Positions 284 through 54,265 are shown, counted from the stretch's first letter. The stretch is 64,000 bases of DNA from Cyanobacteria bacterium J06626_6 (GCA_038523095.1 JBCBJS010000025.1:153-64152); one strand, 5' to 3'. The notes: generated from the letters alone by a model not told the origin. A program made the numbers and translations.

Positions 284-297
284 ATGACCTTTGTCAT
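284..297. promoter_or_regulatory. Palindromic operator ATGACC-TT-TGTCAT, with half-site ATGACG at 306
   Basis: 1 mismatch to ATGACA-N2-TGTCAT; 77 bp upstream of the SnoaL-like start. Confidence 0.65.
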
Positions 298-363
298 ACT
301 TTTCCATGACGAAACGCCATAAAACAGAAAGAACAACTCGCAACAACACAAGTCCATACTTCC

Positions 364-585
364 TTACTTTGAAACGGCGTAGCTGAGCAGCAGAACATCT
401 TTTGCTTTTACTTGAGAGCCAATAAGACTGAGTGCAATAGCATCTTCACCTTCAGCTGCTAAGTCATTGAAGAAACCCTTCTGCGTGGCACTCCCGAATA
501 GAAACGGATGCACTAAAAGATGAATCTCATCTACCAATCCGGCTCGTAGCAGCACTCTTAAGTCAGCGCCATTCGACTAAAAATG
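364..585 (-). pseudogene. RibD C-terminal / dihydrofolate-reductase-like protein remnant
   Basis: LLRAGLVDEIHLLVHPFLFG matches the RibD_C tail motif. An in-frame TAG lies 7 codons upstream of the GTG at 555, while FLVE (cf. LLVEGG) is read in another frame. The N-terminal two-thirds is missing. Confidence 0.6.
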
Positions 586-670
586 ATTATCCAACCCAAT
601 CCAATGACAAAAGTCGCTAGGTTAATGGCGCGTTCCTAAGACACAGAAAAACCGGGCCATGGGAATTCCC

Positions 671-684
671 ATGACTTTTGTCAT
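671..684. promoter_or_regulatory. Palindromic operator ATGACT-TT-TGTCAT (degenerate copy ATGACAAAAGTCGC at 604-617)
   Basis: 1 mismatch to consensus; 57 bp upstream of ORF 741. Confidence 0.65.
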
Positions 685-740
685 CGACTTTACAGCGCGT
701 TTTTGGTTAAACAGAACTCAAGATAGATTAAAAAAATCAG

Positions 741-1139
741 ATGACTTTCTTACTCATTCGTCGAACCTTTGGCATCTTTTGGTTTGCTGCTTTAGTCGTC
801 CTAACCGCTTTGATCATCATCGTTATGGATGCCAATGCTGAGAGTATCAGTAGCGCCCTCAAACTTCCTTATCTCTCTTCCATCGCGATGCTGTCATTGC
901 CGATAACGTTAGTTGCGATGCCGTCATTTTTGTTTTTTCGGAAAAAGCGCTGGATGCTTGGGACATGGGCAGCGGTTATCACATCTCTCTTCAGCTGGGC
1001 CCTACTGCAGGCACTACAAACCACGCTCATTGCGCTATCTCCCACAGAAATCGCCGTCTTATTTCCGAAGGTGGTTGCAGTCTTAGGTGGCTGGACGATA
1101 CTAATTTCTTTGCCACCTGCACTATTACTAGATAGATAA
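741..1139 (+). CDS. Hypothetical integral membrane protein
   Basis: 132 aa, about 4 hydrophobic segments, ATG start downstream of an operator. Confidence 0.6.
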   Translation: MTFLLIRRTFGIFWFAALVVLTALIIIVMDANAESISSALKLPYLSSIAMLSLPITLVAMPSFLFFRKKRWMLGTWAAVITSLFSWALLQALQTTLIALSPTEIAVLFPKVVAVLGGWTILISLPPALLLDR

Positions 1140-1279
1140 ATACTAATGTAGAGCACTTGATTGAGCGATAACGACAAGAATGCAGATATAACGGCGTATT
1201 TTCAGCGTCTTCAGTCTCGGCCCGTGTTTATGAGAGTCGTGCAGCAGAGTCATGCAGCAAAAGTGAGGTAGATGAAATA

Positions 1280-1930
1280 ATGCAGAATCGTAAACTGTTG
1301 TTATCAAAGAGTCGTAAGGCTAACCATCAAAATCGCCTGCTGACAGGTTCTCAGCAGGCAGCCGCGGCTAAAGCGCTGGGCGCAGCTTTTTCGCGAGATC
1401 CTTTCATGTCCTATGTCTTTCCCAACGCGATCGCCCGTGAGAAAAACATCGCCAGCGTCTTTCTTCCTTTAATCCATTGCAATCTAGAGTACGGCAATGT
1501 AGAAGCCACTCAAAATGGAGAGGGCATTCTCCTCTGGATATCTGGTGAGAGCCTTCCTCTAACGCTGCAGATGCTTGTTCGCAGCGGCATGATTTGGACG
1601 CCCTTTAAAGTGGGTCAAGCAGCTTTTAACCGGCTCAATAGTCATGAAGATTTTTGCGACCAAGCAGTAGAGAAGCATGCACCTAAAGGATTCGCCTATA
1701 TGTGGGTGGTCGGCGTGCATCCTAACGCTGCTGGCAAAGGAATTGGCAAACAGATGATTCAGTCAGCAATCAGTACGATGCAACGTCGCGGTCATTCGGC
1801 CTGCATTCTCAGAACAGACAACCAAAAGAATGTTGCACTCTATGAGCATCTTGGCTTTGAGCAAATCCACAATGACATAGAGCCCCGCAGTCAGCTGCCA
1901 TTTTGGCTACTATCGCAGGCGCTCATTTAA
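1280..1930 (+). CDS. GNAT family N-acetyltransferase
   Basis: Acetyl-CoA motif VGVHPNAAGKGIG, followed by N...VALYEHLGF. Confidence 0.85.
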   Translation: MQNRKLLLSKSRKANHQNRLLTGSQQAAAAKALGAAFSRDPFMSYVFPNAIAREKNIASVFLPLIHCNLEYGNVEATQNGEGILLWISGESLPLTLQMLVRSGMIWTPFKVGQAAFNRLNSHEDFCDQAVEKHAPKGFAYMWVVGVHPNAAGKGIGKQMIQSAISTMQRRGHSACILRTDNQKNVALYEHLGFEQIHNDIEPRSQLPFWLLSQALI

Positions 1931-2003
1931 AGCAGCTTGCCAGGCCCTGAGCGCGATTCACACCGCTGTTGATCGATTTAGGTGAAACTCGTACGACACT
2001 CAT

Positions 2004-2017
2004 ATGACAAATGTCAT
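2004..2017. promoter_or_regulatory. Palindromic operator ATGACA-AA-TGTCAT
   Basis: Perfect consensus, upstream of the S9 peptidase remnant. Confidence 0.7.
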
Positions 2018-2066
2018 CAAAAGGAATGGCTTTTAGGTCTGTAGATGGATTTTCTGGTTCGCTAAA

Positions 2067-2885
2067 TTGCAGGCTGTGTGTTGTTTTTTGAGTGAATTAT
2101 CCACTATGAGACGATTTCGTTTAGGGATAGGTTTGTTCGCAGTCTCTGTTGGGTTTGCCTTCGAACCGATCAGCCATTTATCGCCTGTTCAATCACAAAC
2201 GGTAGCGATCGCACAAGATTCAGCTGAGCCCATCAGTCTTCAGTCCACGCCGCCGCCACTCATTGAGCGAGAGCTATTCTTTTCAGACCCAGAGATCACG
2301 GGCGCGAGGCTATCACCAAACGGTCAGTTCATCGCATTTCAAAAGCCGCTAGATGGGGTGCTTAACGTTTGGGTGAAGGGTATTGATGAACCGATGGAAG
2401 CAGCCCGCCCTGTGACAGCAGATGCGCAAAGTCCCATTATGATTTATCGATGGAGCGCCGATGGCCGCTACATTCTCTATGGACAAGACACCGGCGGTGA
2501 TGAGAATTTTAGACTTTACACTGTAGAGCCCGAAGTGATCGGCGAGGCGGGCCCACAGCTGGAGCTGCTGGATATCGGCACGGGAGAGACCGAACTAGTC
2601 GAAACCGCTCCTGAGCAGCAGGTTGATTTTGGCGGTGCAATGTTCTCCCCAGCCACAGATGAGCTGGTTGCAACTTACTATGTGGGCGATCGCAGTCGCA
2701 TTTATCCAAAGTCAGATGAATTGAAACGATGCAGTAGGGCACAAGGCGATCGCCAAGGAAAAGGCCAGATGACCCTTGGCGATCGCTGCAGTTGCTCAGT
2801 CGAGAATAGTCGAGAATCAGCCAAAAATCAGTCGAGAATGTATTGCCACAGTAAAAAATACATCGAGATCAACCAAGTGCCATAG
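2067..2885 (+). pseudogene. S9 (prolyl oligopeptidase/acylaminoacyl peptidase) family, truncated: signal peptide plus partial beta-propeller only
   Basis: PPLIERELFFSDPEITGARLSPNG...QDTGGDENFRLY and VDFGG...YYVGDRSRIYPK are S9 N-terminal motifs. Similarity ends near 2720 and there is no GxSYGG catalytic domain. ATG 2106 is an alternative start. Confidence 0.7.
2746..2786. repeat. 13-bp inverted repeat built on two HIP1 sites
   Basis: GCGATCGCCAAGG (2746-2758) / CCTTGGCGATCGC (2774-2786). Confidence 0.8.
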
Positions 2886-3226
2886 AAAACGACTAGCCAG
2901 AGACCGCATAGGCTGACGAACCGAGTTAGCTTGAGCAGCGGTCCTTGACGCCTGTATTCGTCTGTTCTAGAGGCTCTCACGCTTAGCCAGCGCAATACTG
3001 TCACATTGGTCGCCAAAGCAATTGCTAAAGCATTGAGCCCCGCCATCCAATATCTTTCAGGGCGTAACCAGCTCACGGTAGCACCCGCGTTTGTAGCCGC
3101 CGGGACAAAGTTAGGATCTCTCAAGGGCGAAACCCAAAATGCGACGATAGCAACAGTCATCGCAATGATCAACAGTGCATAAGTGCTCATCTTAAAACAG
3201 CGTTCAAGGTGACGAGCTCCAGTCAT
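2828..3226 (-). CDS. Hypothetical membrane protein
   Basis: 132 aa with 3 hydrophobic segments; divergent from devB. Confidence 0.55.
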   Translation of the reverse strand: MTGARHLERCFKMSTYALLIIAMTVAIVAFWVSPLRDPNFVPAATNAGATVSWLRPERYWMAGLNALAIALATNVTVLRWLSVRASRTDEYRRQGPLLKLTRFVSLCGLWLVVFYGTWLISMYFLLWQYILD

Positions 3227-3453
3227 CTTAAATCCTCTACCTATCGTCTTTCTTAAGGCTAACTAATGCCAGTCGATCCGTGAATAATGTATTCCCATCG
3301 TGATGATAGACCTTCGCAACAACAAAGTAGAGCCAAGACGATTCAAAGGGTTCAGCCTATAGATGAGCCATACAGCGACAGAACATACACACAGTAAACA
3401 AGACAAAATAAGGCAAAACATAGTGAAATAGAGGCGGAATGTCATCAGACTAC

Positions 3454-3467
3454 ATGACATCTGTCAT
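3454..3467. promoter_or_regulatory. Palindromic operator ATGACA-TC-TGTCAT, with half-site TGTCAT at 3440-3445
   Basis: Perfect consensus, 53 bp upstream of the devB start. Confidence 0.7.
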
Positions 3468-3519
3468 CGCGATCGCCAAACTATTTGAGCTAAAACTAAA
3501 GACATAACTCGATTAGCTT

Positions 3520-4689
3520 ATGCTAAAAACAATTTCTCCTTTGCGATGGAATCTCCTGCTAGCAGCTGCCACCATCGTTTCTATTGGTTGCACCTCATTT
3601 GACTCAAACACTAACAACAGTGAGGCTACGACTCCTCAGGCGAATATCAGGTCAGTAGTTGCTCTTGGGCGAATTGAGCCAGAAGGTGAAGTGATTCGAC
3701 TATCGGTGTCAAATGCGGCAGACAGCCGCGTTAACGAGATTCGGGTGAGTGAGGGCGATAGGGTAGAAGCGCAGCAAGTCATTGCCGTACTCCAAGGAGC
3801 TGAGCGGCGACAGGCCGACTTGAGTTCTGCCTACGCGCTAGTCAGGCAGCGCCAGGCAGAACTCGCACAGCAACAAAGTGGCAATGTAAAACCAGCCTCC
3901 CTAGAGGCGCAGCGAGAAACCATTGCCCGCCTCAAAGCGCAGCTCAATGCCCAGAGACAACAAAGACTAGCCGCCATCGAAAAAGCACAGGCCGTACTGC
4001 AAGAATCACAGGCAAAATATCAGCGCTATCAAATGTTGGCTAGTGCTGGAGCACTTGAACGTGTGGAGCTAGATGTCGCGCGCCGGGATTATGAAACGGC
4101 CCAAGCGGATTTATCGCTAGAGCGATCTAACCAGGAAGAAACCGAAAGAACCCTCACTGCTCAAATTGCAGAAGAAAGCGCACGACTAAACGAACTCTCT
4201 CAGCCCTTACCCGAAGCCGTTGAGATTGCGTCTGCTCAGCTAGAGCAGGCCCAGATACAAGTTGACCAAAGCCAGGCTGATTTGGACGATGTGCTGGTTC
4301 GAGCACCTGTCGCAGGCCAAATTTTGAAGATAAACACGCGCGTAGGAGAACAAGTGAATACGCAGCAAGGCATCGTAGAGCTAGCGCAAACAGACCAAAT
4401 GATGGTAGTGGCAGAAGTGTACGAAACCGATATCCGCAGAGTGAGCTTAGGACAGACAGTCAGCGTAACCAGCGAATATGGCGGAGTAGAAAGCGCCCTC
4501 ACCGGAAAGGTCGATCAAATTGGCTTGCAAATTGGGAAGGCGAACTTTGGTGAAGAAGATGCTGACCCCACTCAAGATGTTAATGCACGCATCGTGACCG
4601 TTAAAGTGCGCCTAGATGAGGCAGATAGTGAGCGAGTCGCAGCGCTCACAGGTATGCAGGTGAGAGTCTCTATTGACGTAGATGCATAG
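3520..4689 (+). CDS. devB: DevB-type ABC exporter membrane fusion protein (HlyD family)
   Basis: VVALGRIEPEGEVI, V.EGDRV...Q, long coiled coil, VRAPVAGQILKI, VAEVYETDI. Confidence 0.9.
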   Translation: MLKTISPLRWNLLLAAATIVSIGCTSFDSNTNNSEATTPQANIRSVVALGRIEPEGEVIRLSVSNAADSRVNEIRVSEGDRVEAQQVIAVLQGAERRQADLSSAYALVRQRQAELAQQQSGNVKPASLEAQRETIARLKAQLNAQRQQRLAAIEKAQAVLQESQAKYQRYQMLASAGALERVELDVARRDYETAQADLSLERSNQEETERTLTAQIAEESARLNELSQPLPEAVEIASAQLEQAQIQVDQSQADLDDVLVRAPVAGQILKINTRVGEQVNTQQGIVELAQTDQMMVVAEVYETDIRRVSLGQTVSVTSEYGGVESALTGKVDQIGLQIGKANFGEEDADPTQDVNARIVTVKVRLDEADSERVAALTGMQVRVSIDVDA

Positions 4690-4767: not shown

Positions 4768-6048
4768 ATGTGGAAATCTCTTCTATCTCAGCTCCCTTTC
4801 GTTCGACCGATTGAAAAACCATTGGCCTGGGCGCAGCTCTCCCATCAAAAAGTCCGATTAGCCGTCGCGATTACTGGCGTGAGCTTTGCAAATATTCTGA
4901 TGTTTACAATGATGGGTCTGCAGGCCCTGCTGACTGATGGAGCAACCACCCTGTACGAAAACCTAAAAGGAGACCTTTTTCTAATGTCTTCTTTTAGCCC
5001 TACCCTACGCATCCCGATTGCCATTCCTCGTGCCTATCTACTACAGGCTGATGCAGTGGAGGGCGTGAACATGGCGATGCCGATGTATGTGAGCAACGCC
5101 AACTGGACGGACCCCAGCCAGCTCAAATCGCCTTCAGAACCCCTCTCGACTAATGATGATGAGCCAGAAGGTCCGTCTGCCCAAACATCTGCACAGGAGG
5201 AACCCTCAGGTGATATTTTTGGCAACCAGGTGCGGATAGTGGCTTTTAATCCAAGACAGCCCATTTTCAATATCCCAGAAGTGGAGGAACAGCGCGATCG
5301 CCTGAGCGCAGCTAATTCTGTTCTATTTGACCGCCTCTCTCAGCCCTCCTTAGGAGAGATCCCCGCGCTGCTATCAACTTCCGATAGTGTGCAAACGCTA
5401 ATGGGAGGCCGCCGGGTTAGGGTGGTCGGCCTATTTAGCCTGGGGAGTACCGTAATCGAAAAAGGAACGGTGGTCATGAGCGACTGGAACTACACCCAGT
5501 GGTTCGGGCCGCAGGTGTTGGAGCAGGTGAGCCTAGGAATATTAACCCTAGAGCCGGGTAGCAACGTCGAAGCGGTGCAGGCAACGCTGCGGGACTACCT
5601 GCCGGACACGGTAGATGTGCTGACGATGGAAGAGCTGCTGGCCAAAGAGAGAAAATTCACAGATGAAGATCCTGGGGGCATTATCTTCGGCTTTGGTAGC
5701 ATGGTGGGATTTGTGGTGGGTACTGTGATTGTGTATCAGGTACTGTACACCGATATTAGCGACCACCTGCCAGAATATGCCACGCTGAAGGCGATGGGCT
5801 ACAGCGACGGGGCACTGCTACGAGTGGTGCTGCTGGAGGCCGTTTTACTGGCCATTTTGGGGTTTATTCCTGGATTTGTCACGTCATTGGGGCTGTATCA
5901 GGTGCTGACGGTGATGACTCGGATTCCGCTGACGATGAAGGCTGCGGTTGCCATTCAGGTATTCATGCTAACGCTGGTAATGTGTAATCTGTCGGGTGCG
6001 ATCGCAATGCGCCGTCTCCAATCAGCAGATCCTGCCGACGTCTTTTAG
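4768..6048 (+). CDS. devC: DevC-type ABC exporter permease
   Basis: LAWAQLSHQKVRLAVAITGVSFA, IVYQVLYTDISDHLPEYATLKAMGY, RRLQSADPADVF. Confidence 0.92.
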   Translation: MWKSLLSQLPFVRPIEKPLAWAQLSHQKVRLAVAITGVSFANILMFTMMGLQALLTDGATTLYENLKGDLFLMSSFSPTLRIPIAIPRAYLLQADAVEGVNMAMPMYVSNANWTDPSQLKSPSEPLSTNDDEPEGPSAQTSAQEEPSGDIFGNQVRIVAFNPRQPIFNIPEVEEQRDRLSAANSVLFDRLSQPSLGEIPALLSTSDSVQTLMGGRRVRVVGLFSLGSTVIEKGTVVMSDWNYTQWFGPQVLEQVSLGILTLEPGSNVEAVQATLRDYLPDTVDVLTMEELLAKERKFTDEDPGGIIFGFGSMVGFVVGTVIVYQVLYTDISDHLPEYATLKAMGYSDGALLRVVLLEAVLLAILGFIPGFVTSLGLYQVLTVMTRIPLTMKAAVAIQVFMLTLVMCNLSGAIAMRRLQSADPADVF

Positions 6049-6152: not shown

Positions 6153-6857
6153 ATGTCTCCCACGGTAGCCATCGACAATCTCAGCCATACTTTTGGCAAG
6201 GGTCAGCTCTGCCGAAAGGTACTATCAAATATCAGCTTAAGTCTTCATCCGGGTGAGATTGTGCTGCTGACGGGGCCATCGGGAAGTGGAAAAACAACTC
6301 TGCTCACCCTCATGGGCGCTCTGCGATCGGTGCAAACCGGTAGCCTAAAGGTTCTTGACCAGGAGCTCAAGGGCGCCCGAAAACGCAAGCTCGTTAGGCT
6401 GAGAAGCCAGATTGGGTTTATCTTTCAATCTCACAATTTGCTGGACTGTTTGACAGCCGCAGAAAATGTGGAAATGTCTTTGAAGCTACACGATGAATCA
6501 AAGCGAAGTTCTCCCTGGGAGCAGCTACGTCACCGCCGTCGCCGCTCCCATGAAATGCTAAAAACGGTAGGCCTAGGTGAACATATTCACAAGCACCCAA
6601 GTCAGCTTTCTGGCGGCCAAAAGCAGCGGGTTGCGATCGCCCGCGCCCTGGTCTCCCAGCCCAAAATTGTGCTTGCTGATGAACCCACCGCCTCCCTAGA
6701 TAGCCACTCCGGACGAGACGTTGTAAACCTAATTCAACAGCTTGCCCACCATCAGCATTGCACAGTTTTACTAGTCACCCACGACAACCGCATCCTAGAT
6801 ATTGCAGATCGGACTTTGCACATCGAAGATGGACGGCTGTGTCGAATCATCTCATAG
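6153..6857 (+). CDS. devA: DevA-type ABC exporter ATP-binding protein
   Basis: Walker A GPSGSGKTT, LSGGQKQRVAIARAL, LADEPTASLD. Confidence 0.93.
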   Translation: MSPTVAIDNLSHTFGKGQLCRKVLSNISLSLHPGEIVLLTGPSGSGKTTLLTLMGALRSVQTGSLKVLDQELKGARKRKLVRLRSQIGFIFQSHNLLDCLTAAENVEMSLKLHDESKRSSPWEQLRHRRRRSHEMLKTVGLGEHIHKHPSQLSGGQKQRVAIARALVSQPKIVLADEPTASLDSHSGRDVVNLIQQLAHHQHCTVLLVTHDNRILDIADRTLHIEDGRLCRIIS

Positions 6858-7325: not shown

Positions 7326-8804
7326 CTATGGCAGCTCCACCATCTCCCGCACATTTCCGCGAACTCTCCCTACACCTTTCTGAAATTGCCGGTCCTGCTC
7401 TGCAATTCTCAGCTGCAATCCACGCTTAGGCGACATCACAATCACCCCCGTACGATCTACTGGGGGCTGCGTGACAAATTCCAGTCGGTACCGCTGCAGC
7501 AGCGTAGCCAGAATGATTTTCATCTCCATCATCGCAAAACCTGCGCCAATGCACAGCCGAGGGCCAGCGCTGAAAGGGTTGTACTCGTAGCTATTGGGCT
7601 CAATCGTTTCCCACCGGCCAGGTGAAAATCGCTCCGGATCTGGATACAGGTCGTCCATATGATGCGTCTGAGAGATACTCACTAAAACTTCTGTATCGGC
7701 AGGCAATGTGTATCCACCAAGTACCGTTTCTCTCGCGGTTACTCGCCCATTCCAAGGCACTGGCGACAGCACCCGCATGCTCTCCTTAATAACACGATCC
7801 AACAGAGGAAGCGCCTGCAGCTGTTCTATCGAAGGTGCCCCTCCCTGCAAAACACTCTCCAATTCATCGAGCACATCTGCCATAATCTTCGGATGTTGCG
7901 ATAGCAATAGCAGCGTCCAGGTCAGCGCATTTGCACTTGTCTCGTGTCCAGCAACAAACAGTACCCCAACGTGACCTAGCAATTCTTCTTCACTCAATCC
8001 TGTCTGAGTCTCTTCATCCTGGACCTGCATCAGCATAGAAAGCACATCTGGGTCATCACTGCCCCTTTTTCTTTTGGCTTCTATGAGCGATCGCATTCCC
8101 TGCTCATACTGCGCCGCCAAGTTCAAATACCGATGCCAAGGCAAACCTGGCACATCCCACCGCAAAAGCTTCATCAATACATTCAGCTGCAGCCTCAGCG
8201 CCTCGTGGATAATTCCCCCGGTTTTTCCGCCCTCCGTACCAATGTCTTCACCAAATAGAGACCTAGTCGCAACCCGCAGCGTCAGCTGACGCATGACAGC
8301 CGCCATGTCGTACACCCCACCAACCTTGAGTCCACCCAGCTCATCGTCAGCAATGGACACCATATCTTGGGCATAGGTCGCAAGACGCTGGCGGTGAAAC
8401 GCTGGCATCATCAGCTTACGCTGTTGCAAATGTGCACCTTCATTTACCCCAAAAAGCCCTACCAAAAAATGATTCAACGGCTTCGTTCGCGTCGACTGAT
8501 TGCGCAGGCTATAGATTGGACCAGTGAGCGGATACTTATAGTAAACGTCGTGCTGGGTAACCACCTGACGCACCAAGTCCGGCCCACAGGCAAAAACTGT
8601 CCCGCAGCACGTAGGTCTTGGAGAATACAGGCGTGTACCACCCCCCGCATTCAAAGCGACGAGGTTACCGTACTCACGAAAGAGCTTGCGACTGTAGCCA
8701 ACCGAATCTTTTACAAACCGCAGAAGGCTAAATGCAGGGCCCAAAAAGGGTGAAGGCCGAGGACCTGGAACATTCAACGGTTGCCTGCCGAGTATGGTCG
8801 TCAT
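7326..8804 (-). CDS. Cytochrome P450
   Basis: AGHETSANAL (I-helix), ESMR (ExxR), PERFSP, heme loop PFSAGPRLCIG. ATG 8804 preferred over TTG 8828. Confidence 0.95.
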   Translation of the reverse strand: MTTILGRQPLNVPGPRPSPFLGPAFSLLRFVKDSVGYSRKLFREYGNLVALNAGGGTRLYSPRPTCCGTVFACGPDLVRQVVTQHDVYYKYPLTGPIYSLRNQSTRTKPLNHFLVGLFGVNEGAHLQQRKLMMPAFHRQRLATYAQDMVSIADDELGGLKVGGVYDMAAVMRQLTLRVATRSLFGEDIGTEGGKTGGIIHEALRLQLNVLMKLLRWDVPGLPWHRYLNLAAQYEQGMRSLIEAKRKRGSDDPDVLSMLMQVQDEETQTGLSEEELLGHVGVLFVAGHETSANALTWTLLLLSQHPKIMADVLDELESVLQGGAPSIEQLQALPLLDRVIKESMRVLSPVPWNGRVTARETVLGGYTLPADTEVLVSISQTHHMDDLYPDPERFSPGRWETIEPNSYEYNPFSAGPRLCIGAGFAMMEMKIILATLLQRYRLEFVTQPPVDRTGVIVMSPKRGLQLRIAEQDRQFQKGVGRVRGNVREMVELP

Positions 8805-8926
8805 CAGCACTCTCCTTCCCAAAGTCAAACAACAAACTCGGGCTATTTTGAGCGGGCGGTAAAGCCCTGTTTTTGGTTTGAGCGAAATCCACAGGCTCTG
8901 TAGAACTCATGAGCAAAGTGCCTGTC

Positions 8927-8942
8927 GCTATTGCACAATAGC
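8927..8942. promoter_or_regulatory. Palindrome GCTATTG-CA-CAATAGC upstream of the P450
   Basis: Perfect 7-2-7 dyad about 120 bp upstream of the P450 start. Confidence 0.35.
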
Positions 8943-8952
8943 ATCACTTAGT

Positions 8953-8993
8953 AGCAGCAAGCACGGGCAAATTCTATGCCCGTGCTTGCTGCT
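8953..8993. terminator. Perfect 17-bp stem-loop between the holin-family gene and the P450
   Basis: AGCAGCAAGCACGGGCA / TGCCCGTGCTTGCTGCT with a 7-nt loop; T-rich run on the + side only. Confidence 0.5.
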
Positions 8994-9084
8994 GTTTCTT
9001 TAGCGCTGCGCCAGCTGAAAACAGTGTAGGTAGAGGACCGGCTTCAGCCGGATTTGCCGTCTGAAGTGAGCCTCTAAAGTGAGC

Positions 9085-9546
9085 CTATGAAATAGTGACA
9101 GCTTCTACAGTGATAACTCGCTCAGCAGCAGGTCGAACGTCGTATAGTTCTGTCTGCTCTAGCGTTTGCTGACGACCTATCGCAGCTAACTTCTTATCAA
9201 TGCCTTTACGAACCAAGTAGTTAGTCAGCGCAGTGCTCACGAAGGAGAGCGCCATGGGGCCAAAGAGAAAGGCAAAGAACCCATGGATAGTAAACCCAGG
9301 CACGACTAGCGAAGCCAGCCAAAAACAAAAGCCATTTACCACCAGTGAGAACCCACCCAATGTCAAAATACTCATGGGTAGGGACAGTAACTTAATAACC
9401 GGCTTTATTGAGCTATTGACTAGCCCAATCGACAGTGCCGCGCCCAACGCAACCGGAAACGTTGCAATACCCACCCCAGGCACCAAAAAGTCAACAACCA
9501 GTAAGCTAAAGGCTGTAACCAGGGTTGTCAGCAAAAATCCCAACAT
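9085..9546 (-). CDS. Phage-holin-family (YvlD-like, 4 TM) membrane protein
   Basis: ALGAALSIGLVNSSIKPVIKLLSLPMSILTLGGFSLVVNG motif; GAGGAG RBS. Confidence 0.85.
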   Translation of the reverse strand: MLGFLLTTLVTAFSLLVVDFLVPGVGIATFPVALGAALSIGLVNSSIKPVIKLLSLPMSILTLGGFSLVVNGFCFWLASLVVPGFTIHGFFAFLFGPMALSFVSTALTNYLVRKGIDKKLAAIGRQQTLEQTELYDVRPAAERVITVEAVTIS

Positions 9547-9738
9547 TGTTTTCTCCTCTTTTTTTCTCTATTTTTTCGTTTTTCTTTGCCCTTCAAGCAT
9601 GACAAAAGAGAAACTCAATTCAGAGTGTAGAGAACCCTATCAAACCCTGTGAAAACCATACTCTCGGTAGGGTTTTCCTCCCACAAAGTTCGGTTGAAAG
9701 AACGTCTTGCACGTGGCGTGTGAACCAATGAACCAGCG

Positions 9739-11136
9739 CTACGATGCGGCAGTCACACCACCAGCACTGTCATCAGCAGGCGCACTCTCACCATCTGCAG
9801 CACCGCTCTCTAGCTGCGGATGCGTCACCACTAGCTGATAGGTTAGGTAGCTCAGCAGTACAGCCATGTAGCCTGTGAGTGCACACCAGAGCCAGACCTC
9901 GCTCCGTTGATAAACGGCTAACCCAATCAAAGGCAAAAATCCAGCAAAAAACCCAAGCAGCGCGCCATTTCTTAGGGCTGCTCCTGCCTTGATACCGATA
10001 AAGTAGCTCTCCATCATAAAGGCCGCTGCCGTTAGGCTCAGCAAAGGTATCAGCCACGCTGTGTACTGCTTCATGGCATCTGATACTTCAGTGTGGTTGG
10101 TGAGTAGGCTAAATACCCTATCTGGGAAAAGTACTGTGCAGAGTGCAAAGGCCAGTGCGATTGCAAGTCCATTCACCACCGCCACCCGCAGCACTGGCAA
10201 AATCTGGCTTACAACGCCTTTCCCCTTGAAGTTACCAATCAAAGTCTGGGAGGTCATGCCGACTCCCTGCACCGTAAACTGGCTCAGCAGTGCAATCTGC
10301 AACAGCAAACCGTTTTCGGCCAGCGCTTCTGTACCAAAAGAAGCACTCAAATTAGTAAAAATAGAATAGGCCGAAATCAGCGCCAGGAATCGGACCAAAA
10401 TATTGCCCTTCAGCACCACAGCTGACATCAGCGCCTCCCGCTCCATCACCTGCCCCCAGGCTCTACCAACCAGCTGCCACTGCGTCGTTAGCAGTAGTGC
10501 CAGCAGCCCCACACCCAGTGCCAGGTAATGACTGAGCGCGGTTGCCAGCCCGGCGCCCGTACTTTCCCATCCCCACCGCATAATCATCAGATAGTCAAAC
10601 AACACATTTGTACCGTTGCCAACAATGGACATCAGAAAGACGATTCCATTCATTTCTCGGCCAAGGAACCAGCCAATTAAAACAAAATTTAGCAGAACAG
10701 CAGGCGCGCCCCACACCCTCGCATTGAAGTATTGCAGCCCGGCTATCTCTGTGTCTGAAGAACCCGAAAGAATCGCAAATCCCAGCTGATGGATCGGGGT
10801 TTGCAATAGCAAAATGACAGCAGCGATCGCAACAGCTATCAGACCACAGCGCAGCACTGCAACCACCACAGCCGTCGGATCGTCCTCCCCCATCGCATTC
10901 GCCGTTAGCGAATTGGTGCTGTTGCGCAAAAACTTCAGAATCCGATAGATGTAGTCAAATAAGATTCCACCTAAAATGACGCCCGCCAAAGAATTGATAT
11001 TCGACAGATGGCCCAAGAAAGCAGCGTCAAACAGTCCGGCCAGCGGCACCATCATGTTTGACAACATGGCAACCACAGCCAACCGATAGAAGCGGGGTAA
11101 AAAGCGCTTGTAGGATGCAGGCACAGAAAACGTCAT
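9739..11136 (-). CDS. MATE family efflux transporter (DinF-like)
   Basis: RLAVVAMLSNMMVPLAGLFDAAFLGHL, ARVWGAPAVLLNFVLIGWFLG; about 12 TM segments. Confidence 0.88.
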   Translation of the reverse strand: MTFSVPASYKRFLPRFYRLAVVAMLSNMMVPLAGLFDAAFLGHLSNINSLAGVILGGILFDYIYRILKFLRNSTNSLTANAMGEDDPTAVVVAVLRCGLIAVAIAAVILLLQTPIHQLGFAILSGSSDTEIAGLQYFNARVWGAPAVLLNFVLIGWFLGREMNGIVFLMSIVGNGTNVLFDYLMIMRWGWESTGAGLATALSHYLALGVGLLALLLTTQWQLVGRAWGQVMEREALMSAVVLKGNILVRFLALISAYSIFTNLSASFGTEALAENGLLLQIALLSQFTVQGVGMTSQTLIGNFKGKGVVSQILPVLRVAVVNGLAIALAFALCTVLFPDRVFSLLTNHTEVSDAMKQYTAWLIPLLSLTAAAFMMESYFIGIKAGAALRNGALLGFFAGFLPLIGLAVYQRSEVWLWCALTGYMAVLLSYLTYQLVVTHPQLESGAADGESAPADDSAGGVTAAS

Positions 11137-11302
11137 GGTGAGGCAGTAGGTAAGCACCCCTATCATTACAGCTACAACCCTCGTTGCGCAAAACAACTCA
11201 ACGATGAAGATTTTGAATAGCTAAGTCGCTGAAGACTAAGCCGCCGTGTAAAGCAGGTTAAATTCAAAACATAAAATGTTTCCTGCTTGTGTGTCCGCTT
11301 AG

Positions 11303-11653
11303 ATGTATAAAGTTAGCCTGCGAGATGCTAAAAACCGGCTTGCTCAGCTTATGGAAGTAGCGGCCAAGGGAGAATCGGTCATCATCGTTCGCGAAGATGG
11401 CACAGCATTTAGCCTGACGTTAGCTGAGGTAGCGGCTGACAGCCCCGACACCTCAACCACCACAGAAGCGCCTCAGCCAACAACCCAGCCCAGCCCGCAG
11501 AAACGCGGCGTCAGCCAGTCATCTGACTTCGATGCTCAGAGCTTCATGCAAGAGCTGGAAGATGCATATGAAGAACAGACAAACCAGCAAGCGTCTCACA
11601 AGCAAAGCGCAGACTGGGACACCAGCATAGAAAAGTATTTCAGTGAAGACTAG
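11303..11653 (+). CDS. Phd/YefM-family antitoxin-like protein with extended C-terminus
   Basis: N-terminus VSLRDAKNRLAQLMEVAAKGESVIIVR is the Phd/YefM DNA-binding signature. Confidence 0.75.
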   Translation: MYKVSLRDAKNRLAQLMEVAAKGESVIIVREDGTAFSLTLAEVAADSPDTSTTTEAPQPTTQPSPQKRGVSQSSDFDAQSFMQELEDAYEEQTNQQASHKQSADWDTSIEKYFSED

Positions 11654-12046
11654 CCAGGCAGAAAATTCCTTGAGCAGAAGCAATTTCTACCCAAGGAAGT
11701 ATCTGGGTTGGTTCAGTATGTTCCTTTGGAGTCAGTAGGGAGCCCTGAGCCAAACTGTAGGCTATTCAACAGTTAAGGAAAGTTGAAGTATCTGAGAGTA
11801 TTTACCTCTCAGGGCATCATGCCTTCTAGGAAACACCATATGTCTTTCCTAGTTTGAAATTAATGCCTTTCTACGCAGCAAAATTTGTACGCATTGCTTT
11901 TACGCATACGAGTTTTACTGTCGCTGATCGCCTATTCGCTCACTGATTGACTCGCTCCCAGCTTAGCTGCAGCCAGCCTCACGTACGAGCACTGTTATAG
12001 AGGGTCAGCTAGGGCATTGCTCTCAAGTAATTAGGACTTTTATAGA

Positions 12047-12478
12047 ATGGAATCTGATCCTCAAAAACAAACTGCCGGACAACTGGAGCGAGCCATTTCT
12101 CAGAGCCTACAGGCACTCTACAAGAAGCAGCTAGGGCAAACCCCCTCTAAAGTAACCTGTCAATTCTTCGAAACTAAAATTGGCATCGTTATCGAAGATT
12201 CCATCACCAAGCCAGAACTGCTTATGCTCGAAGCGAACGATACCGCACTGGTTGAGCAGGTGCGCCGAGACATTAACGGTATTATCCAGAAAAAGGTAAG
12301 AGAGCTGGCCTTAGAAATTCTTCAGCTCGAAGCTACCGATGTCTTGATAGATACGTCCATAGATACAGGCACTACCGGCATCGTTGTCTCTTTGTCGGGC
12401 ATTCCCAATGTGCGAAATGTAGAAGCTATTCCAAAAGCAACCAAGAGAAAGTCAATCTCCAGCCAAGAAGAGCAATAG
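12047..12478 (+). CDS. DUF2294 (MpsC-like) domain protein
   Basis: QLERAISQSLQALYKKQLGQTPSKVTCQFF...IEDSITKPE. Confidence 0.85.
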   Translation: MESDPQKQTAGQLERAISQSLQALYKKQLGQTPSKVTCQFFETKIGIVIEDSITKPELLMLEANDTALVEQVRRDINGIIQKKVRELALEILQLEATDVLIDTSIDTGTTGIVVSLSGIPNVRNVEAIPKATKRKSISSQEEQ

Positions 12479-12531
12479 AACGGACGCAAAATACACCGGC
12501 TACGGCCAAAAACTGTCACCAAAAACTGTCA

Positions 12532-12960
12532 TTGGCTTATCCGTCTCACGCCATCCCACCCGCCATATTTTCAAAGCGAATTTCATCAGGTCAGGCTGTA
12601 AAAATGCCCCAGAAAAAAGAAATACATGGGTTAGAAGCAGCGCTTGAGCATGCCTTGAAAAATGTACATATCAGCTGTCTGGGCTACGGACCAAACAAAT
12701 TGAGGTGCGAATTTTTGCGAACTTGCGATCTGTTGGTGAGTGTCGAAAGGCCACGGTCTCAGCCAGAGAAACTCCTACTGAACGAGGGACATGAGGAAGA
12801 GGCTCAGCGAGCAGGATATTCTGTAAACAAAGGGCTGAAGCAGAAGTTTTTAGATGAACTACTGCAGCGGTTTGGGCTGACAATTACTAACGTCGCCACT
12901 CTCAAGCCCAGCTTACCCGAAAAATTCAATTTGCTGATCTCCATCGAGCTAGACCATTGA
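12532..12960 (+). CDS. Divergent DUF2294-like paralogue
   Basis: LEAALEHAL...LGYGPNKLRCEF...PRSQPEKLLLNEGHEEEAQ is colinear with the upstream gene. TTG start uncertain. Confidence 0.6.
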   Translation: MAYPSHAIPPAIFSKRISSGQAVKMPQKKEIHGLEAALEHALKNVHISCLGYGPNKLRCEFLRTCDLLVSVERPRSQPEKLLLNEGHEEEAQRAGYSVNKGLKQKFLDELLQRFGLTITNVATLKPSLPEKFNLLISIELDH

Positions 12961-14240: not shown

Positions 14241-15401
<1,161 letters not shown>

Positions 15402-36014: not shown

Positions 36015-36486
36015 ACTGTCTCCCAAAAAGTTGTTTGTTGTTTGAGATGTTCCAAGAAATTAGAACACCTCAAATTTAAGCAACACCAACAAAACAAACC
36101 TGAAGCAAATGTCATGTTTGTAACTAGCCCAAACGACTCAGGCACTAGCATTACTTTTTACCCTGGCACCAGCAAAATAGGCACAACGTCATAGCCGCCT
36201 AGCCCCTGTGGTTCGAGAAACATGTGTCATTCGCTACCCCCCGTGCTGATATGCCCTTTTTTACAAGCTTGTCTCAGCACCTTCCTGCGAGCCTTTCCGC
36301 CCAGCTCGCCCGCGCCCTACTCCCGTCATAGCCACAAAGACTGAGCATTTGTCATCATCTTATGACCAGTTGGCCGATGCCAACGCCATTACTGCCTCAC
36401 CACAATGGCAGATGGCACAACCCCAAATCAGAACGTTCTACCGCAGCCATAATCGCGCTCATCACCCCTAAAAAAACAATAAGCGA

Positions 36487-38166
36487 ATGAATAAACCCCA
36501 CACGTTTGTTCGCAGAACAAGCAAGGCAATCATCTGGGTTGCCCTAGGACTTCTCTGCGCCTGCAACAGTACCCCTATTCCCCAAAACGCTTCCACAGAA
36601 GACAACACCACTTCCCAAACACCGCCCCTATCCCTCTGCCCACCACGCCCCGAGGCCCTTCCCGTCGAAACAACCCAAAAAGAAATCGACAAACGAACCT
36701 ATGTCTTTGGCCGATTCGACTACGCCCCCAGAAAAATCCTCCTCCAAGAGAACACAATCCATTTCCAAGCCAGAGAATACGACTTCGTACACTGCCTAAC
36801 GGACGGTACTTGGACCGTGCAGCCTGGGACCCTCGGCGACGAATGGATAGTAGCTCGCAGCGCGAAATTTACCGACAGGCCAGACTTCTCCAACCTAGAA
36901 GTCGATGGAGAAACCTACCAGTACCGGGTTGTCCGCACCCCCCATCCGCCTACCAACGCCGCCTACAAATCCGTCGTTTTAGAACTCTTAATCCCCGGAG
37001 AAGAGACCCCTCAAGAGCACACCCTATACACCTTAGAAGATCTTCAACAGGCCAGCGGCAGCTCCGATATGGGCCCAGCCAACAAACTCGGCATTCCCCA
37101 TATCACCACCGCCATCTTCCATCGCGATCGCCTGTGGTGGACAGTTGCCTTCGAACAAGGCGAAGGCAATGGCGGTATCGCCACCATCATCAGCTACGAC
37201 CCAGCGACCAGAGAGATTATACTCATCCAGCCAGACGAACTGTGGTCCCAGCAAATTCTGAATTTGGCCTTTACTGGAAGTCCAGAACAGCCCACCCTAT
37301 GGATGGGAACAAAGCGGAGCAGCAAAGGCACCAGTGACGTACCAGCAGCCGGGCTAGTATCTTACCAACCAGCTTCTTTAGCAGAGCTAGACACTGGCAG
37401 AGTGCAATCCTACACCCCCTACAACAGTCCTTTGATTGGCGCGATTCCCACTCAGCTTGCGGTGAGCGGTGAACAGCTCTGGGTCGGGACGCGTAACGGC
37501 GTCTGTGCGCTAGGTTGGCAAGCGCCAACAGTCTCTGCTAGCTGGGACTGCTGGCAGTTTGTAACCAAAGCGATCGCATCCCCTAACGCCCAGTCCATGC
37601 AGTCTATCCCCGTATACCCATCCCGGCTTAGCCAGACTCCTGCAGCGGCGATTCCGGTTGCCCCTAACCAGGAAATAGCAGACGTCCTGTGGTGGATGCT
37701 AGCAGATAGTAGCTCCCAACAGGGACGCTACGAGGTGACCTTAGAACAGGGTTTGGAAGCAGCCATAGAACAAGGCGCATCACCAATGAGCGGACCGCAG
37801 TGGGTTGAGACACCAGGCCAGGTGCCGATGTTTTGGCCAGGGTACTGGTGGCACTGGCAGGGCGATCGCTTCGTCCGTCCGCTGGACCACCATTTGAATA
37901 ATTGGATCGCAGGCGATCGCGGCATCGGTCCCCACCAGCAGACGACTTCGATTAATGACTGGTACGCCATGAGAGGAGAGTTAGAGCTGCTAGAGCTCTC
38001 AGCAGAATCGACCCGGGTAAAGCACTATTCCGGCTGGGTAGACGACACCTTGTTACTTCCATTTCCAGCTGTTGTAGATCCCCCAGGGGGGCCTTCACAA
38101 TCGCCAGAACCCACGCCGAATCCACTCATTGAATTCAACCGTCAGATCAAAGCTGAAACGGAATAG
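36487..38166 (+). CDS. Hypothetical lipoprotein, probable beta-propeller
   Basis: Lipobox LLCAC; repeated LWMGT / LWVGTRNG / LWWT blade-like motifs. Confidence 0.75.
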   Translation: MNKPHTFVRRTSKAIIWVALGLLCACNSTPIPQNASTEDNTTSQTPPLSLCPPRPEALPVETTQKEIDKRTYVFGRFDYAPRKILLQENTIHFQAREYDFVHCLTDGTWTVQPGTLGDEWIVARSAKFTDRPDFSNLEVDGETYQYRVVRTPHPPTNAAYKSVVLELLIPGEETPQEHTLYTLEDLQQASGSSDMGPANKLGIPHITTAIFHRDRLWWTVAFEQGEGNGGIATIISYDPATREIILIQPDELWSQQILNLAFTGSPEQPTLWMGTKRSSKGTSDVPAAGLVSYQPASLAELDTGRVQSYTPYNSPLIGAIPTQLAVSGEQLWVGTRNGVCALGWQAPTVSASWDCWQFVTKAIASPNAQSMQSIPVYPSRLSQTPAAAIPVAPNQEIADVLWWMLADSSSQQGRYEVTLEQGLEAAIEQGASPMSGPQWVETPGQVPMFWPGYWWHWQGDRFVRPLDHHLNNWIAGDRGIGPHQQTTSINDWYAMRGELELLELSAESTRVKHYSGWVDDTLLLPFPAVVDPPGGPSQSPEPTPNPLIEFNRQIKAETE

Positions 38167-38428: not shown

Positions 38429-39121
38429 ATGCTAAGCGAAGCGACATCTTTGAGTCCTAGCGTCAAGTTTCAGGCTCCCCTACAAATCGCAATTATAGAG
38501 AATGACCCAGTCATGCGGCTGGGATTAGAACAGTTTTTAGAAGGGTACGACAGCTTTCAGGTAGTCGGCACCGCCAGAGATGGCAACTCAGCCGTTGCCC
38601 TAGCCCTCAGGCTGAAGCCTGATATCGTCGTTATGGATATCGGGCTGCCCCAGCTAGACGGCATCACCGCGACCCAACAAATTAAACAAAATCAGCCAAG
38701 TGTGCGCGTTGTAATGCTCACCTCCCATACCGCAGATTACGAGATGGTAGCGGCGTTGGCTAGCGGTGCCGATGCCTACTGCGTTAAAGGCAGTAGCTTA
38801 GAACAGCTAGAGATCGCTATCAACTGCGCCTACAGAGGGGCGACTTATTTAGATCCGCAAATTGCCCGCCGCGTCATTGGGCATCTGCAGTGCCATCAAA
38901 AGCAGGGATATCAGAAGCAAGCATCCGATATAAATCTATCGAAACGAGAGCGGGAGGTACTAGAGCTGATTGTAGAAGGTAAGAGCAATCCAGAGATTGC
39001 CTCTGAGCTTTTTTTGAGCATCAGCACAGTTAAGACCCATCTTCGCAGCATCATGAGCAAGCTCTCAGTCGATGATCGCGTGCAGGCCGCCGTGGCTGCT
39101 CTAAGAAGTGGCTTGATCTAA
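38429..39121 (+). CDS. NarL/LuxR-family DNA-binding response regulator
   Basis: Receiver PDIVVMDIGLP, LTS, YCVK; HTH LSKREREVLELIVEGKSNPEIA...STVKTHL. Confidence 0.93.
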   Translation: MLSEATSLSPSVKFQAPLQIAIIENDPVMRLGLEQFLEGYDSFQVVGTARDGNSAVALALRLKPDIVVMDIGLPQLDGITATQQIKQNQPSVRVVMLTSHTADYEMVAALASGADAYCVKGSSLEQLEIAINCAYRGATYLDPQIARRVIGHLQCHQKQGYQKQASDINLSKREREVLELIVEGKSNPEIASELFLSISTVKTHLRSIMSKLSVDDRVQAAVAALRSGLI

Positions 39122-52928: not shown

Positions 52929-52942
52929 ATGGCAAATGTCAT
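52929..52942. promoter_or_regulatory. Palindrome ATGGCA-AA-TGTCAT
   Basis: 1 mismatch to ATGACA-N2-TGTCAT; 44 bp upstream of the ATPase ATG. Confidence 0.45.
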
Positions 52943-53005: not shown

Positions 53006-54265
53006 TTATAGCGGTAGCTCAATGACAAACTCACTGCCCCCGCCCGCAGTCGATACGCAAGACAGTCGCCCGCCGTGCTTTTCAGTAACGATTTGATGGC
53101 TAATCGCCAAACCCAGCCCGGTTCCTTTTCCCAGCGGCTTCGTCGTAAAAAAAGGATCAAATAGCTTATCAATCGTTTCCTGCGTCATACCAGGACCGTT
53201 ATCTGCGATCGCAATTCTCACCCACTCACCTACGGCCTCAGTCGATATTGTGATGACCTTCAGGTGTTTTTCATCCGCTAGCTGCTCGGCGACCTGTTTC
53301 GCGCAGCGGCCTTCAGCACACTCCTCAAAAGCATCAATCGCATTGCCAACAATATTCATAATCACCTGATTAAGCTGGCTGGCATGGCAAGGAACCTTAG
53401 GCAGCACGTTGTACTTACGGATAACCTTTATCTGCGAAGTGTCAGCCGTCCCCTTCAGCCGACTGTTTAAGATAACCAGCGTACTCTCAATGCCCACGTG
53501 GACATCAACAGCTTCCTTCTCAAATTCGTCCAGCCGAGAGAAATTTCTCAAAGAAAGCACGAGCTCCCGAATCCGAGTCGCTCCCATTTCCAGAGAATCC
53601 ATCAGCTTGGCCAGATCCTCCTGCAAGAAATCAAGGTCGATCTCTTCGATGTAGTTCTGAATATCTGGATTTGGATTTGGGTAGTGCTGCTGATATAGCT
53701 CAATCAGCTCAATCAGCTCCTCAACATAGCTTCTAGCCGGATTCAGGTTGCCATATACGTAATTGACCGGATTGTTGATTTCGTGGGCGACCCCGGCTAA
53801 CATTTGCCCCAGAGAAGACATTTTTTCACTTTGCACAAGCTGCAGTTGGGCCTGCTTCAGCCGAATTCGATTGGCCTTCTCTTCATCGATAGCCCTCAGA
53901 GTTCTCTCCAGAGTAATGAGCAAATCCTTCGAGTTAATCGGCTTAGTAACAAAGTCAAAAGCCCCCTTATTCATAGCCGCCCGAATATTATTCATATCGC
54001 TGTAGGCAGAAACCACAACCGTTTTGGGCGGATATTCCAAGTCATTAAGCTTACCCAGCAGCGCCAACCCATCCATCTCAGGCATATTGATGTCAGTGAG
54101 CACCACATCAATATCAGGTGAGGCCGTCACTTTCTCATAGGCTTCTGTACCATTGCTCGCGAAAGTAAATACATAGTCTCCCTGGGCAATCCCACGGCGA
54201 AACTTCAACGCGATCAACATTTCGACGTCAGGCTCATCGTCGACAACGAGAATAGAGTGAGTCAT
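53006..54265 (-). CDS. Hybrid receiver-histidine kinase (Rec-HisKA-HATPase)
   Basis: VVDDE, DINMP, KP; H-box AGVAHEINNP; NAIDA, DNGPG, FFTTK, GTGLGL. Confidence 0.93.
   Translation of the reverse strand: MTHSILVVDDEPDVEMLIALKFRRGIAQGDYVFTFASNGTEAYEKVTASPDIDVVLTDINMPEMDGLALLGKLNDLEYPPKTVVVSAYSDMNNIRAAMNKGAFDFVTKPINSKDLLITLERTLRAIDEEKANRIRLKQAQLQLVQSEKMSSLGQMLAGVAHEINNPVNYVYGNLNPARSYVEELIELIELYQQHYPNPNPDIQNYIEEIDLDFLQEDLAKLMDSLEMGATRIRELVLSLRNFSRLDEFEKEAVDVHVGIESTLVILNSRLKGTADTSQIKVIRKYNVLPKVPCHASQLNQVIMNIVGNAIDAFEECAEGRCAKQVAEQLADEKHLKVITISTEAVGEWVRIAIADNGPGMTQETIDKLFDPFFTTKPLGKGTGLGLAISHQIVTEKHGGRLSCVSTAGGGSEFVIELPL

Follow-up and report, generated by a model that had tools for sequence, protein, structure and literature searches.

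We analyzed a 64,000-nucleotide stretch of DNA from Cyanobacteria bacterium J06626_6 (GCA_038523095.1, JBCBJS010000025.1:153-64152; hereafter the window), in which a short inverted repeat, ATGACA-N2-TGTCAT, recurs in front of several genes, among them a devBCA exporter operon. This repeat belongs to a real, conserved, tripartite cis-element that is tightly linked to a gene pair for a histidine kinase and a response regulator. Recurrent families of effector genes lie beside the element, and it keeps two conserved spacings to -10-like elements. An initial annotation, made from the window alone, had proposed that a NarL/LuxR-type regulator acts through the repeat on the DevBCA exporter and on modifying enzymes. 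The analysis described here supports that interpretation, extends the regulon beyond the window and suggests that the operator is family-wide.

Operator copies and genes of the window

With up to one mismatch, the palindrome ATGACANNTGTCAT occurs five times in the window, against 0.17 occurrences expected, and 0 of 100 dinucleotide-preserving shuffles of the window gave five sites at this threshold. All five copies are intergenic:

284-297: operator O1, ATGACCTTTGTCAT, one mismatch; 76 nt 5' of the ATG of a SnoaL-like gene (207, minus strand)
671-684: operator O2, ATGACTTTTGTCAT, one mismatch; 56 nt 5' of the ATG of open reading frame (ORF) 741
2004-2017: operator O3, perfect, ATGACAAATGTCAT; 88 nt from the ATG at 2106 and 49 nt from a TTG at 2067
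3454-3467: operator O4, perfect, ATGACATCTGTCAT; 52 nt 5' of the devB ATG at 3520
52929-52942: candidate fifth operator, ATGGCAAATGTCAT, one mismatch; 44 nt 5' of the probable ATG (52884) of a P-type ATPase gene (minus strand)

The perfect copies at 2004 and 3454 and the one-mismatch copies at 284 and 671 had been recognized in the initial annotation, which missed the copy at 52929. It had placed the copies 50-90 bp before start codons, in agreement with the 52-88 nt that we measured for the four clustered ones, and its expectations (0.14 sites with at most one mismatch, 0.004 perfect sites) were of the right size, the shuffles giving 0.17 for the former. A degenerate copy which it listed at 604 was rejected as a site; it has three mismatches, a level at which about 22 matches per window are expected, and the stretch has no counterpart in L007, a locus from a close relative in which O1, O2 and O3 are found again.

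Two further sources of sequence were used throughout. L001 is the public contig that contains the window (window position = L001 position - 8721) and adds 8.7 kb on its left. In L007, O1 corresponds to position 12507, with identical flanks and an identical third half-site (see below), O2 to position 13369 (ATGACTTTGGTCAT) and O3 to position 15225, 5' of an intact S9 peptidase gene of 698 codons. The layout of O4 is repeated at L032 2719 and L087 2935. Within the window, the flanks of the copies are alike for at most ~7 nt past the palindrome, and thus they do not belong to any larger repeat. At 658-673 there is a perfect 16-nt palindrome, CATGGGAATTCCCATG, which overlaps the first 3 nt of O2; it has a terminator-like score on the minus strand.

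The copy at 52929 is an ATGGC variant, as are the kinase promoter sites at L001 4204 and L007 5275. It has neither a third half-site nor a clear -10 element, and its role as an operator of the P-type ATPase gene is uncertain. Directly upstream of the ATPase gene, on the same strand, is a gene for a hybrid REC-histidine kinase (53006-54265). Elsewhere in the window, the intergenic region 36026-36487 contains three lone TGTCAT half-sites (36110, 36225 and 36350) without an inverted partner and two CGTCATAGCC motifs (~36189 and ~36325), these elements being ~115-135 nt apart.

The four clustered copies lie among the following genes:

1-207, minus: 5' part of a SnoaL-like gene (Pfam SnoaL_2); the full gene, of 131 codons, is at L001 8533-8928
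364-555, minus: remnant (63 amino acids) of a RibD_C-family reductase gene; intact (231 amino acids) and operator-adjacent in L007
741-1139, plus: ORF 741, small membrane protein of 132 amino acids with 3-4 hydrophobic segments; same family in L007
1280-1930, plus: GNAT acetyltransferase (Pfam Acetyltransf_1)
2106-2885, plus: S9 peptidase gene, present as a remnant; homology to the intact copy in L007 stops near 2721, with an internal deletion of ~390 nt
2828-3226, minus: membrane ORF of 132 amino acids (called as 120 amino acids); TATTTT 43 nt from O4, ~2 nt off the spacing peak described below
3520-4689, plus: devB-family membrane fusion protein (NCBIfam TIGR02971, 239.9 bits, cutoff 129)
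4768-6048, plus: devC-family permease with an FtsX domain (TIGR01185, 339.9 bits, cutoff 290.35)
6153-6857, plus: devA-family ABC ATPase (TIGR02982, 334.2 bits, cutoff 295.8)

The DevB, DevC and DevA signatures are all above the curated cutoffs and the genes stand in that order. ORF 741 is the probable first gene of a two-gene unit, with which the GNAT gene is probably co-transcribed. It is possible, although uncertain, that the membrane ORF at 2828-3226 is driven leftwards from O4. The RibD_C and S9 peptidase genes are intact and have operators in L007, and the copies in the window are decayed members of the same regulon; the operators of both truncated genes are still intact in the window, the one at 2004 being perfect. 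On the other side of devBCA, the region 7326-12960 contains genes for a cytochrome P450, a holin-family membrane protein, a MATE efflux protein and two MpsC-domain proteins, as well as a Phd/YefM-like antitoxin fragment. No operator with up to one mismatch was found at the genes of this region.

A linked kinase-regulator pair and its conservation in cyanobacteria

It had been suggested in the initial annotation that the cognate regulator lies just left of the window. Genes for a HisKA_3 kinase and a REC+GerE regulator are indeed located there (L001 4293-6278, i.e. window positions -4428 to -2443, 2.4-4.4 kb to the left) and are preceded by a site of their own. The left 8.7 kb of L001, annotated with Pfam, codes for:

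serine hydrolase of family S12, beta-lactamase fold, with an SVTK motif
lipoprotein of 229 amino acids
HisKA_3 histidine kinase of 411 amino acids, the type to which DesK and LiaS belong
response regulator of 212 amino acids (L001 5640-6278), REC+GerE, NarL family, acceptor residue Asp54
DUF1400/alpha-beta-hydrolase

Two operators are present in this region, ATGACTTTTGTCAT at 106 nt 5' of the S12 hydrolase gene and ATGGCTTTTGTCAT at 76 nt 5' of the kinase gene. The lipoprotein matched no Pfam or NCBIfam family. Between the alpha/beta-hydrolase and SnoaL genes (L001 8240-8370) there is a short duplicated sequence, 'CTCCCAATGGGAGA(A/G)GG', a typical small cyanobacterial repeat.

A crude hydropathy analysis of the kinase indicated that its N-terminal 195 residues are almost wholly membrane-embedded, with ~5-6 hydrophobic segments in residues 20-195, a longest loop of ~30 residues and no large extracytoplasmic domain. 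Its best solved relative is DesK (E = 2e-18); LiaS and VraS match weakly. The full-length regulator, compared with PDB entries, is closest to VraR and LiaR (VraR, E = 1e-48; DesR, E = 1e-31), and the same is true of its DNA-binding domain alone (E = 5e-16 for VraR vs 3.5e-6 for DesR). In the stretch of the recognition helix that touches bases in the NarL-DNA structure, all 81 regulator orthologues have K/R-N-H/Y; DesR has RNY and VraR has KTH.

The window itself also codes for a REC+GerE protein of the NarL type (ORF 38429-39121), which the initial annotation had put forward as a candidate regulator. That this protein is the cognate factor is very improbable: it is 35% identical to the regulator encoded left of the window, its recognition helix has the VraR sequence VKTH in place of KNH, no site is found near its gene, and the gene is not linked to the cluster.

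Orthologues of the adjacent regulator (65-98% identity) were found in 80 cyanobacterial genome loci. The hosts include Leptolyngbya sp. PCC 7375, Adonisia, Moorena, Symploca, Hyella, Hydrococcus, Phormidesmis, Fischerella, Scytonema, Calothrix and many marine metagenome-assembled genomes. For the kinase promoter we counted the 66 loci which had a kinase orthologue (identity down to 37%) and enough upstream DNA. Within 260 nt 5' of the kinase gene, 62 of these have the core ATGAC-N4-GTCAT with at most one mismatch and 49 have it exactly, the chance per locus being ~0.008 and ~0.0003, respectively. Of the 76 exact core sites detected in 1.21 Mb of loci, 69 fall between genes, in DNA that is 82% coding by a crude ORF call; the motif is thus not equally common in coding DNA. 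Genes that start beside the sites code for the kinase (49), S12 hydrolase (17), S9 peptidase (14), DevB (5), SnoaL (4) and the regulator (4), and less often for Omp85 (3), S41 peptidase (2), RibD_C (2), a protein with the transpeptidase fold of penicillin-binding proteins (1) and a PAF-AH-like hydrolase (1). At one regulator orthologue, an array ~165 nt 5' of the gene (L015 465-512) consists of a 17-nt unit, ATGACTTTTGTCACTTT, repeated three times in tandem, with a full ATGACTTTTGTCAT behind it; it resembles an operator that has been amplified.

The motif is conserved in devB promoters as well. It is present 5' of DevB genes in L009, L032, L050 and L061 and, in a separate metagenome sample of DevB genes, in three of the four closest relatives (L087, L089 and L097). 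No operator was found at DevB paralogues with 66-68% identity, and thus it marks one DevB orthologue group rather than every devBCA operon. Four paralogue loci (L090, L091, L093 and L095) have another conserved stretch, ..CCTGCATTG..GCACCTGCATCAGTG.., ~150 nt 5' of the starts; this is perhaps a control element of another type, or else an upstream gene ends here.

These data bear on two other explanations of the sites. Palindromes of moderate length do arise by chance, and the copy at 604 is such a case. There is practically no likelihood, however, that the other copies arose by chance or derive from a dispersed repeat, as they are strongly enriched in the window, have unlike flanks and keep their position in dozens of genomes; the 69 of 76 intergenic sites and the 62 of 66 kinase loci refute this explanation. 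A second possibility is that some unlinked transcription factor binds the motif and that the kinase-regulator operon is merely another of its targets. Adjacency and conservation prove co-regulation, not the identity of the binder, and the regulator is nearer to VraR and LiaR, whose pneumococcal motif (TMMRYCTRARGWYKGA) differs. On the other hand, DesR-type NarL regulators that work with HisKA_3 kinases have this motif and this tripartite spacing, the site accompanies the pair in nearly all the kinase loci, and the regulator has the recognition-helix Asn in common with DesR. No other regulator gene was consistently linked to the sites in these loci. We therefore regard an unlinked factor as quite improbable, and the adjacent regulator is very likely to be the protein that binds the operators, as judged from its sequence and genetic linkage. 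With somewhat less but still considerable confidence, the palindromes can be considered operators of one two-component system, that encoded to the left of the window.

Tripartite site and two promoter layouts

The operator is tripartite and consists of the palindrome, 8 nt, and a third ATGAC. At 46 of 152 site-sides the distance to the third half-site is exactly 8 nt (~0.15 expected), and at 8 further site-sides it is 9 nt. Its distribution is asymmetric: it was found on the kinase side in 0 of 49 cases, on the S12 hydrolase side in 12 of 17 and on the S9 peptidase side in 11 of 15. For 45 oriented sites the consensus reads CC-ATGACAAAnGTCAT-N8-ATGACnTnTnGCTATGG, and most other flanking columns are unconserved. 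Hexamers of the form TANNNT peak 45-46 nt past the palindrome on the side of the third half-site (38 of 46) and 22-23 nt past it on the opposite side (32 of 46).

These peaks suggest two promoter layouts. In layout A, palindrome, 8-nt spacer and third half-site would be followed by a -10 element at 45-46 nt, which would center the palindrome at about -64.5 and the third half-site at about -46.5. In layout B, the -10 element would be at 22-23 nt, with the third half-site upstream and the palindrome centered at about -41.5 if transcription starts ~7 nt past the -10 hexamer. Layout A appears to serve effector genes, and it is also seen at stand-alone promoters (the hydrolase gene at L001 3333, and window 2004). 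Layout B appears to serve the kinase-regulator operon and devBCA; its stand-alone examples are devB and ORF 741. Its presence at the kinase-regulator operon implies positive autoregulation. The elements in the window are as follows:

306-311, plus: third half-site ATGACG, 8 nt past O1; directed away from the SnoaL-like gene, with no -10-like hexamer after it
256-261, minus: weak -10-like TGAAAT, 22 nt from O1 on the SnoaL side; kept in L007, where the spacer has diverged
707-713, plus: -10-like TTAAACA, 22-23 nt past O2; TTAAACAGA is common to the window and L007
2026-2031, plus: third half-site ATGGCT, 8 nt past O3 on the gene side; GTGGCT in L007
2063-2068, plus: -10-like TAAATT (layout A), 45 nt past O3, on the 45-46 nt peak; identical in L007
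3440-3445, minus: third half-site ATGACA, 8 nt from O4 on the side away from devB; found at this position in L032 and L087 as well
3491-3496, plus: -10-like TAAAAC (layout B), 23 nt past O4, on the 22-23 nt peak; GCTAAAACTAAAG is kept in the window, L032 and L087

TGAAAT at 256-261 can only be inferred to be the -10 element of the SnoaL-like gene. TTAAACA at 707-713 lies on the 22-23 nt peak, yet neither of its hexamers fits TANNNT. A generic sigma-70 promoter scan was uninformative (5 hits vs 5.1 expected) and used the half-site 3445-3440 as a -35 element.

The -35 regions match poorly (TGGAnn), which would be expected if the promoters depend on an activator. An alternative is that the adjacent regulator binds the sites and mainly represses, at least in layout B (kinase operon, devBCA and ORF 741). 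There the palindrome would occupy about -48 to -35, where many regulators occlude RNA polymerase, and ATGACA resembles the -35 consensus TTGACA, for which the generic scan indeed took it at 3445-3440. Repression is nevertheless unlikely in view of the poor -35 regions and of the layout A sites, which at about -71 to -44 are in an activator position; moreover, DesR and the pneumococcal regulator RR11 are activators and RR11 is positively autoregulated. The regulator probably activates transcription and autoregulates positively.

Proposed circuit and comparison with known systems

In the circuit that we propose, by analogy with DesR, the kinase would phosphorylate the regulator on sensing that the membrane or cell envelope is disturbed. 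A regulator dimer would bind the high-affinity palindrome ATGAC-N4-GTCAT, and a second dimer would bind the weaker neighboring site, made up of the third ATGAC 8 nt away and a degenerate partner, whereupon transcription would be activated. Members of the island would be the S12 hydrolase, the lipoprotein, the kinase-regulator operon, the SnoaL-like gene (possibly with the alpha/beta-hydrolase gene behind it), the small membrane protein with GNAT, the decayed S9 peptidase, devBCA and perhaps the P-type ATPase 49 kb away.

The effector set is made up of serine hydrolases, whose folds are of the penicillin-binding and peptidase kinds, together with an alpha/beta-hydrolase, SnoaL, a reductase, an acetyltransferase and an exporter that is MacAB-like. 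This content suggests a response in which a harmful compound, peptide-like or lipophilic, is broken down, modified and exported, or one in which the envelope is repaired. With such effectors and with no desaturase linked, a detoxification or envelope response fits better than a membrane-fluidity response. Chances are about even that the stimulus is a membrane or envelope perturbation and the output the degradation, modification and export of a harmful compound.

It should be noted that several observations weigh against the proposed circuit. The third half-site of O1 is directed away from the SnoaL-like gene, whose -10 element is weak, and that of O4 is distal to devB, so that the two-layout model is based on the positions of -10-like hexamers only. 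The site counts cover the loci with regulator orthologues, and these loci are phylogenetically related, which means that the counts overstate independence. Both the whole regulator and its DNA-binding domain are nearer to VraR and LiaR than to DesR, so that overall similarity does not lead one to predict a DesR-like specificity. Both the stimulus and the sign of regulation are inferred. Sequencing runs with the window sequence are DNA metagenomes only, with no RNA run among them. A search for RNA runs with the Leptolyngbya PCC 7375 locus gave none, and for the Moorena locus two runs, whose kind is not stated, gave low-depth DNA-like contigs without transcript ends.

Through the present analysis, a two-component system that is conserved across at least 66 genome loci of cyanobacteria receives a DNA operator, a promoter grammar and a set of candidate target genes. 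In the searchable literature we found no description of such a cyanobacterial system, and the initial annotation could not match the regulon to a described one either. A broader proposal, to which we give slightly less than even weight, is that cyanobacteria from Leptolyngbya-like forms to Nostocales share an undescribed circuit of envelope-stress response or antimicrobial defense, which uses the DesR-type tripartite operator as a two-way promoter hub and is a cyanobacterial counterpart of LiaRS/VraSR. If this is true, one side of the hub would serve to amplify the sensor and the other to induce S12, S9, S41 and penicillin-binding protein-like serine hydrolases (periplasmic or cytoplasmic), modifying enzymes and DevBCA, possibly as a defense against peptide or beta-lactam-like natural products, and the operator design would have been preserved across phyla. 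The same layout is available in culturable relatives, including Leptolyngbya sp. PCC 7375, Moorena, Hydrococcus rivularis NIES-593 and Fischerella sp. PCC 9431.

Among known systems, the devBCA operon of Anabaena codes for an NtcA-dependent exporter of heterocyst glycolipids. The subunits encoded in the window resemble it in that all three pass the NCBIfam DevB, DevC and DevA cutoffs. Control by NtcA was rejected for the devBCA operon of the window, since no GTA-N8-TAC is present in window 1-29000 and the promoter has a DesR-type operator instead. Non-heterocyst exporters of the DevBCA type would gain a concrete regulatory input other than NtcA.

With LiaRS and VraSR, the system shares the closest solved relatives of the regulator, both full-length and for the DNA-binding domain, the intramembrane-sensing type of kinase and a regulon rich in envelope enzymes and enzymes with the penicillin-binding fold. 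It differs in the operator, which is ATGAC-N4-GTCAT here and TMMRYCTRARGWYKGA for pneumococcal VraR (PMC11034029), and in the recognition helix, KNH or KNY here and KTH in VraR. No LiaF- or VraT-like gene was recognized beside the kinase-regulator operon by Pfam and NCBIfam annotation.

The motif of Bacillus subtilis DesR is [ATGACA]-N2-[TGTCAT], in agreement with the initial annotation, and the candidate motif of its pneumococcal homologue RR11 is [ATGACATTTGTCAT]-N7-[AGTGACA] (PMC11034029). The same promoter design is reported for ABC-transporter promoters linked to YvfTU-type systems (PMC7726353). RR11 is positively autoregulated and has no specific target other than its own operon, of which ABC transporter genes are a part (PMC11034029). 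In the DesR-controlled promoter Pdes, a distal high-affinity site and an adjacent proximal site are both needed for activation, and DesR dimerizes and then tetramerizes on DNA (PMC4251995). Layout A would reproduce the arrangement of Pdes; layout B is absent from these three accounts (PMC11034029, PMC7726353, PMC4251995).

Likeness to DesK/DesR thus extends to the palindrome ATGACA-N2-TGTCAT, the high-affinity site with an adjacent second site as in layout A, the HisKA_3 kinase with a multi-pass membrane sensor, and the NarL-family regulator with acceptor Asp54 and a recognition-helix Asn. In contrast, DesR is not the closest relative of the regulator (E = 1e-31 vs 1e-48 for VraR), there are many operators per genome where DesR has one, there is an extra layout with the palindrome beside the -35 region, and the hosts are Cyanobacteria rather than Firmicutes. 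As far as annotated, no desaturase is present among the 31 gene families adjacent to sites. The YvfT/YvfU-type systems and TCS11, the system of RR11, likewise have a DesKR-like pair genetically linked to an ABC transporter, and ATGACATTTGTCAT-N7-AGTGACA has the same spacing of palindrome, 8 nt and (A/G)TGACA. However, the transporter here is a tripartite exporter of the DevBCA type (MacAB-like, with an FtsX domain) with its own promoter and is not of the YvfRS type, and the regulon adds S12, S9 and S41 hydrolases, SnoaL, GNAT and others. The DesR-type operator and the 8-nt spacing of the third half-site are apparently common to Firmicutes and Cyanobacteria, even though the regulator here stands no nearer to DesR than to VraR, which is useful for predicting the specificity of NarL-family regulators. 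The system would thus work like DesKR and TCS11, although we do not file its regulator as a DesR orthologue, and the circuit appears to be of the DesR/YvfU/RR11-like kind, in a new phylum and with a different regulon.

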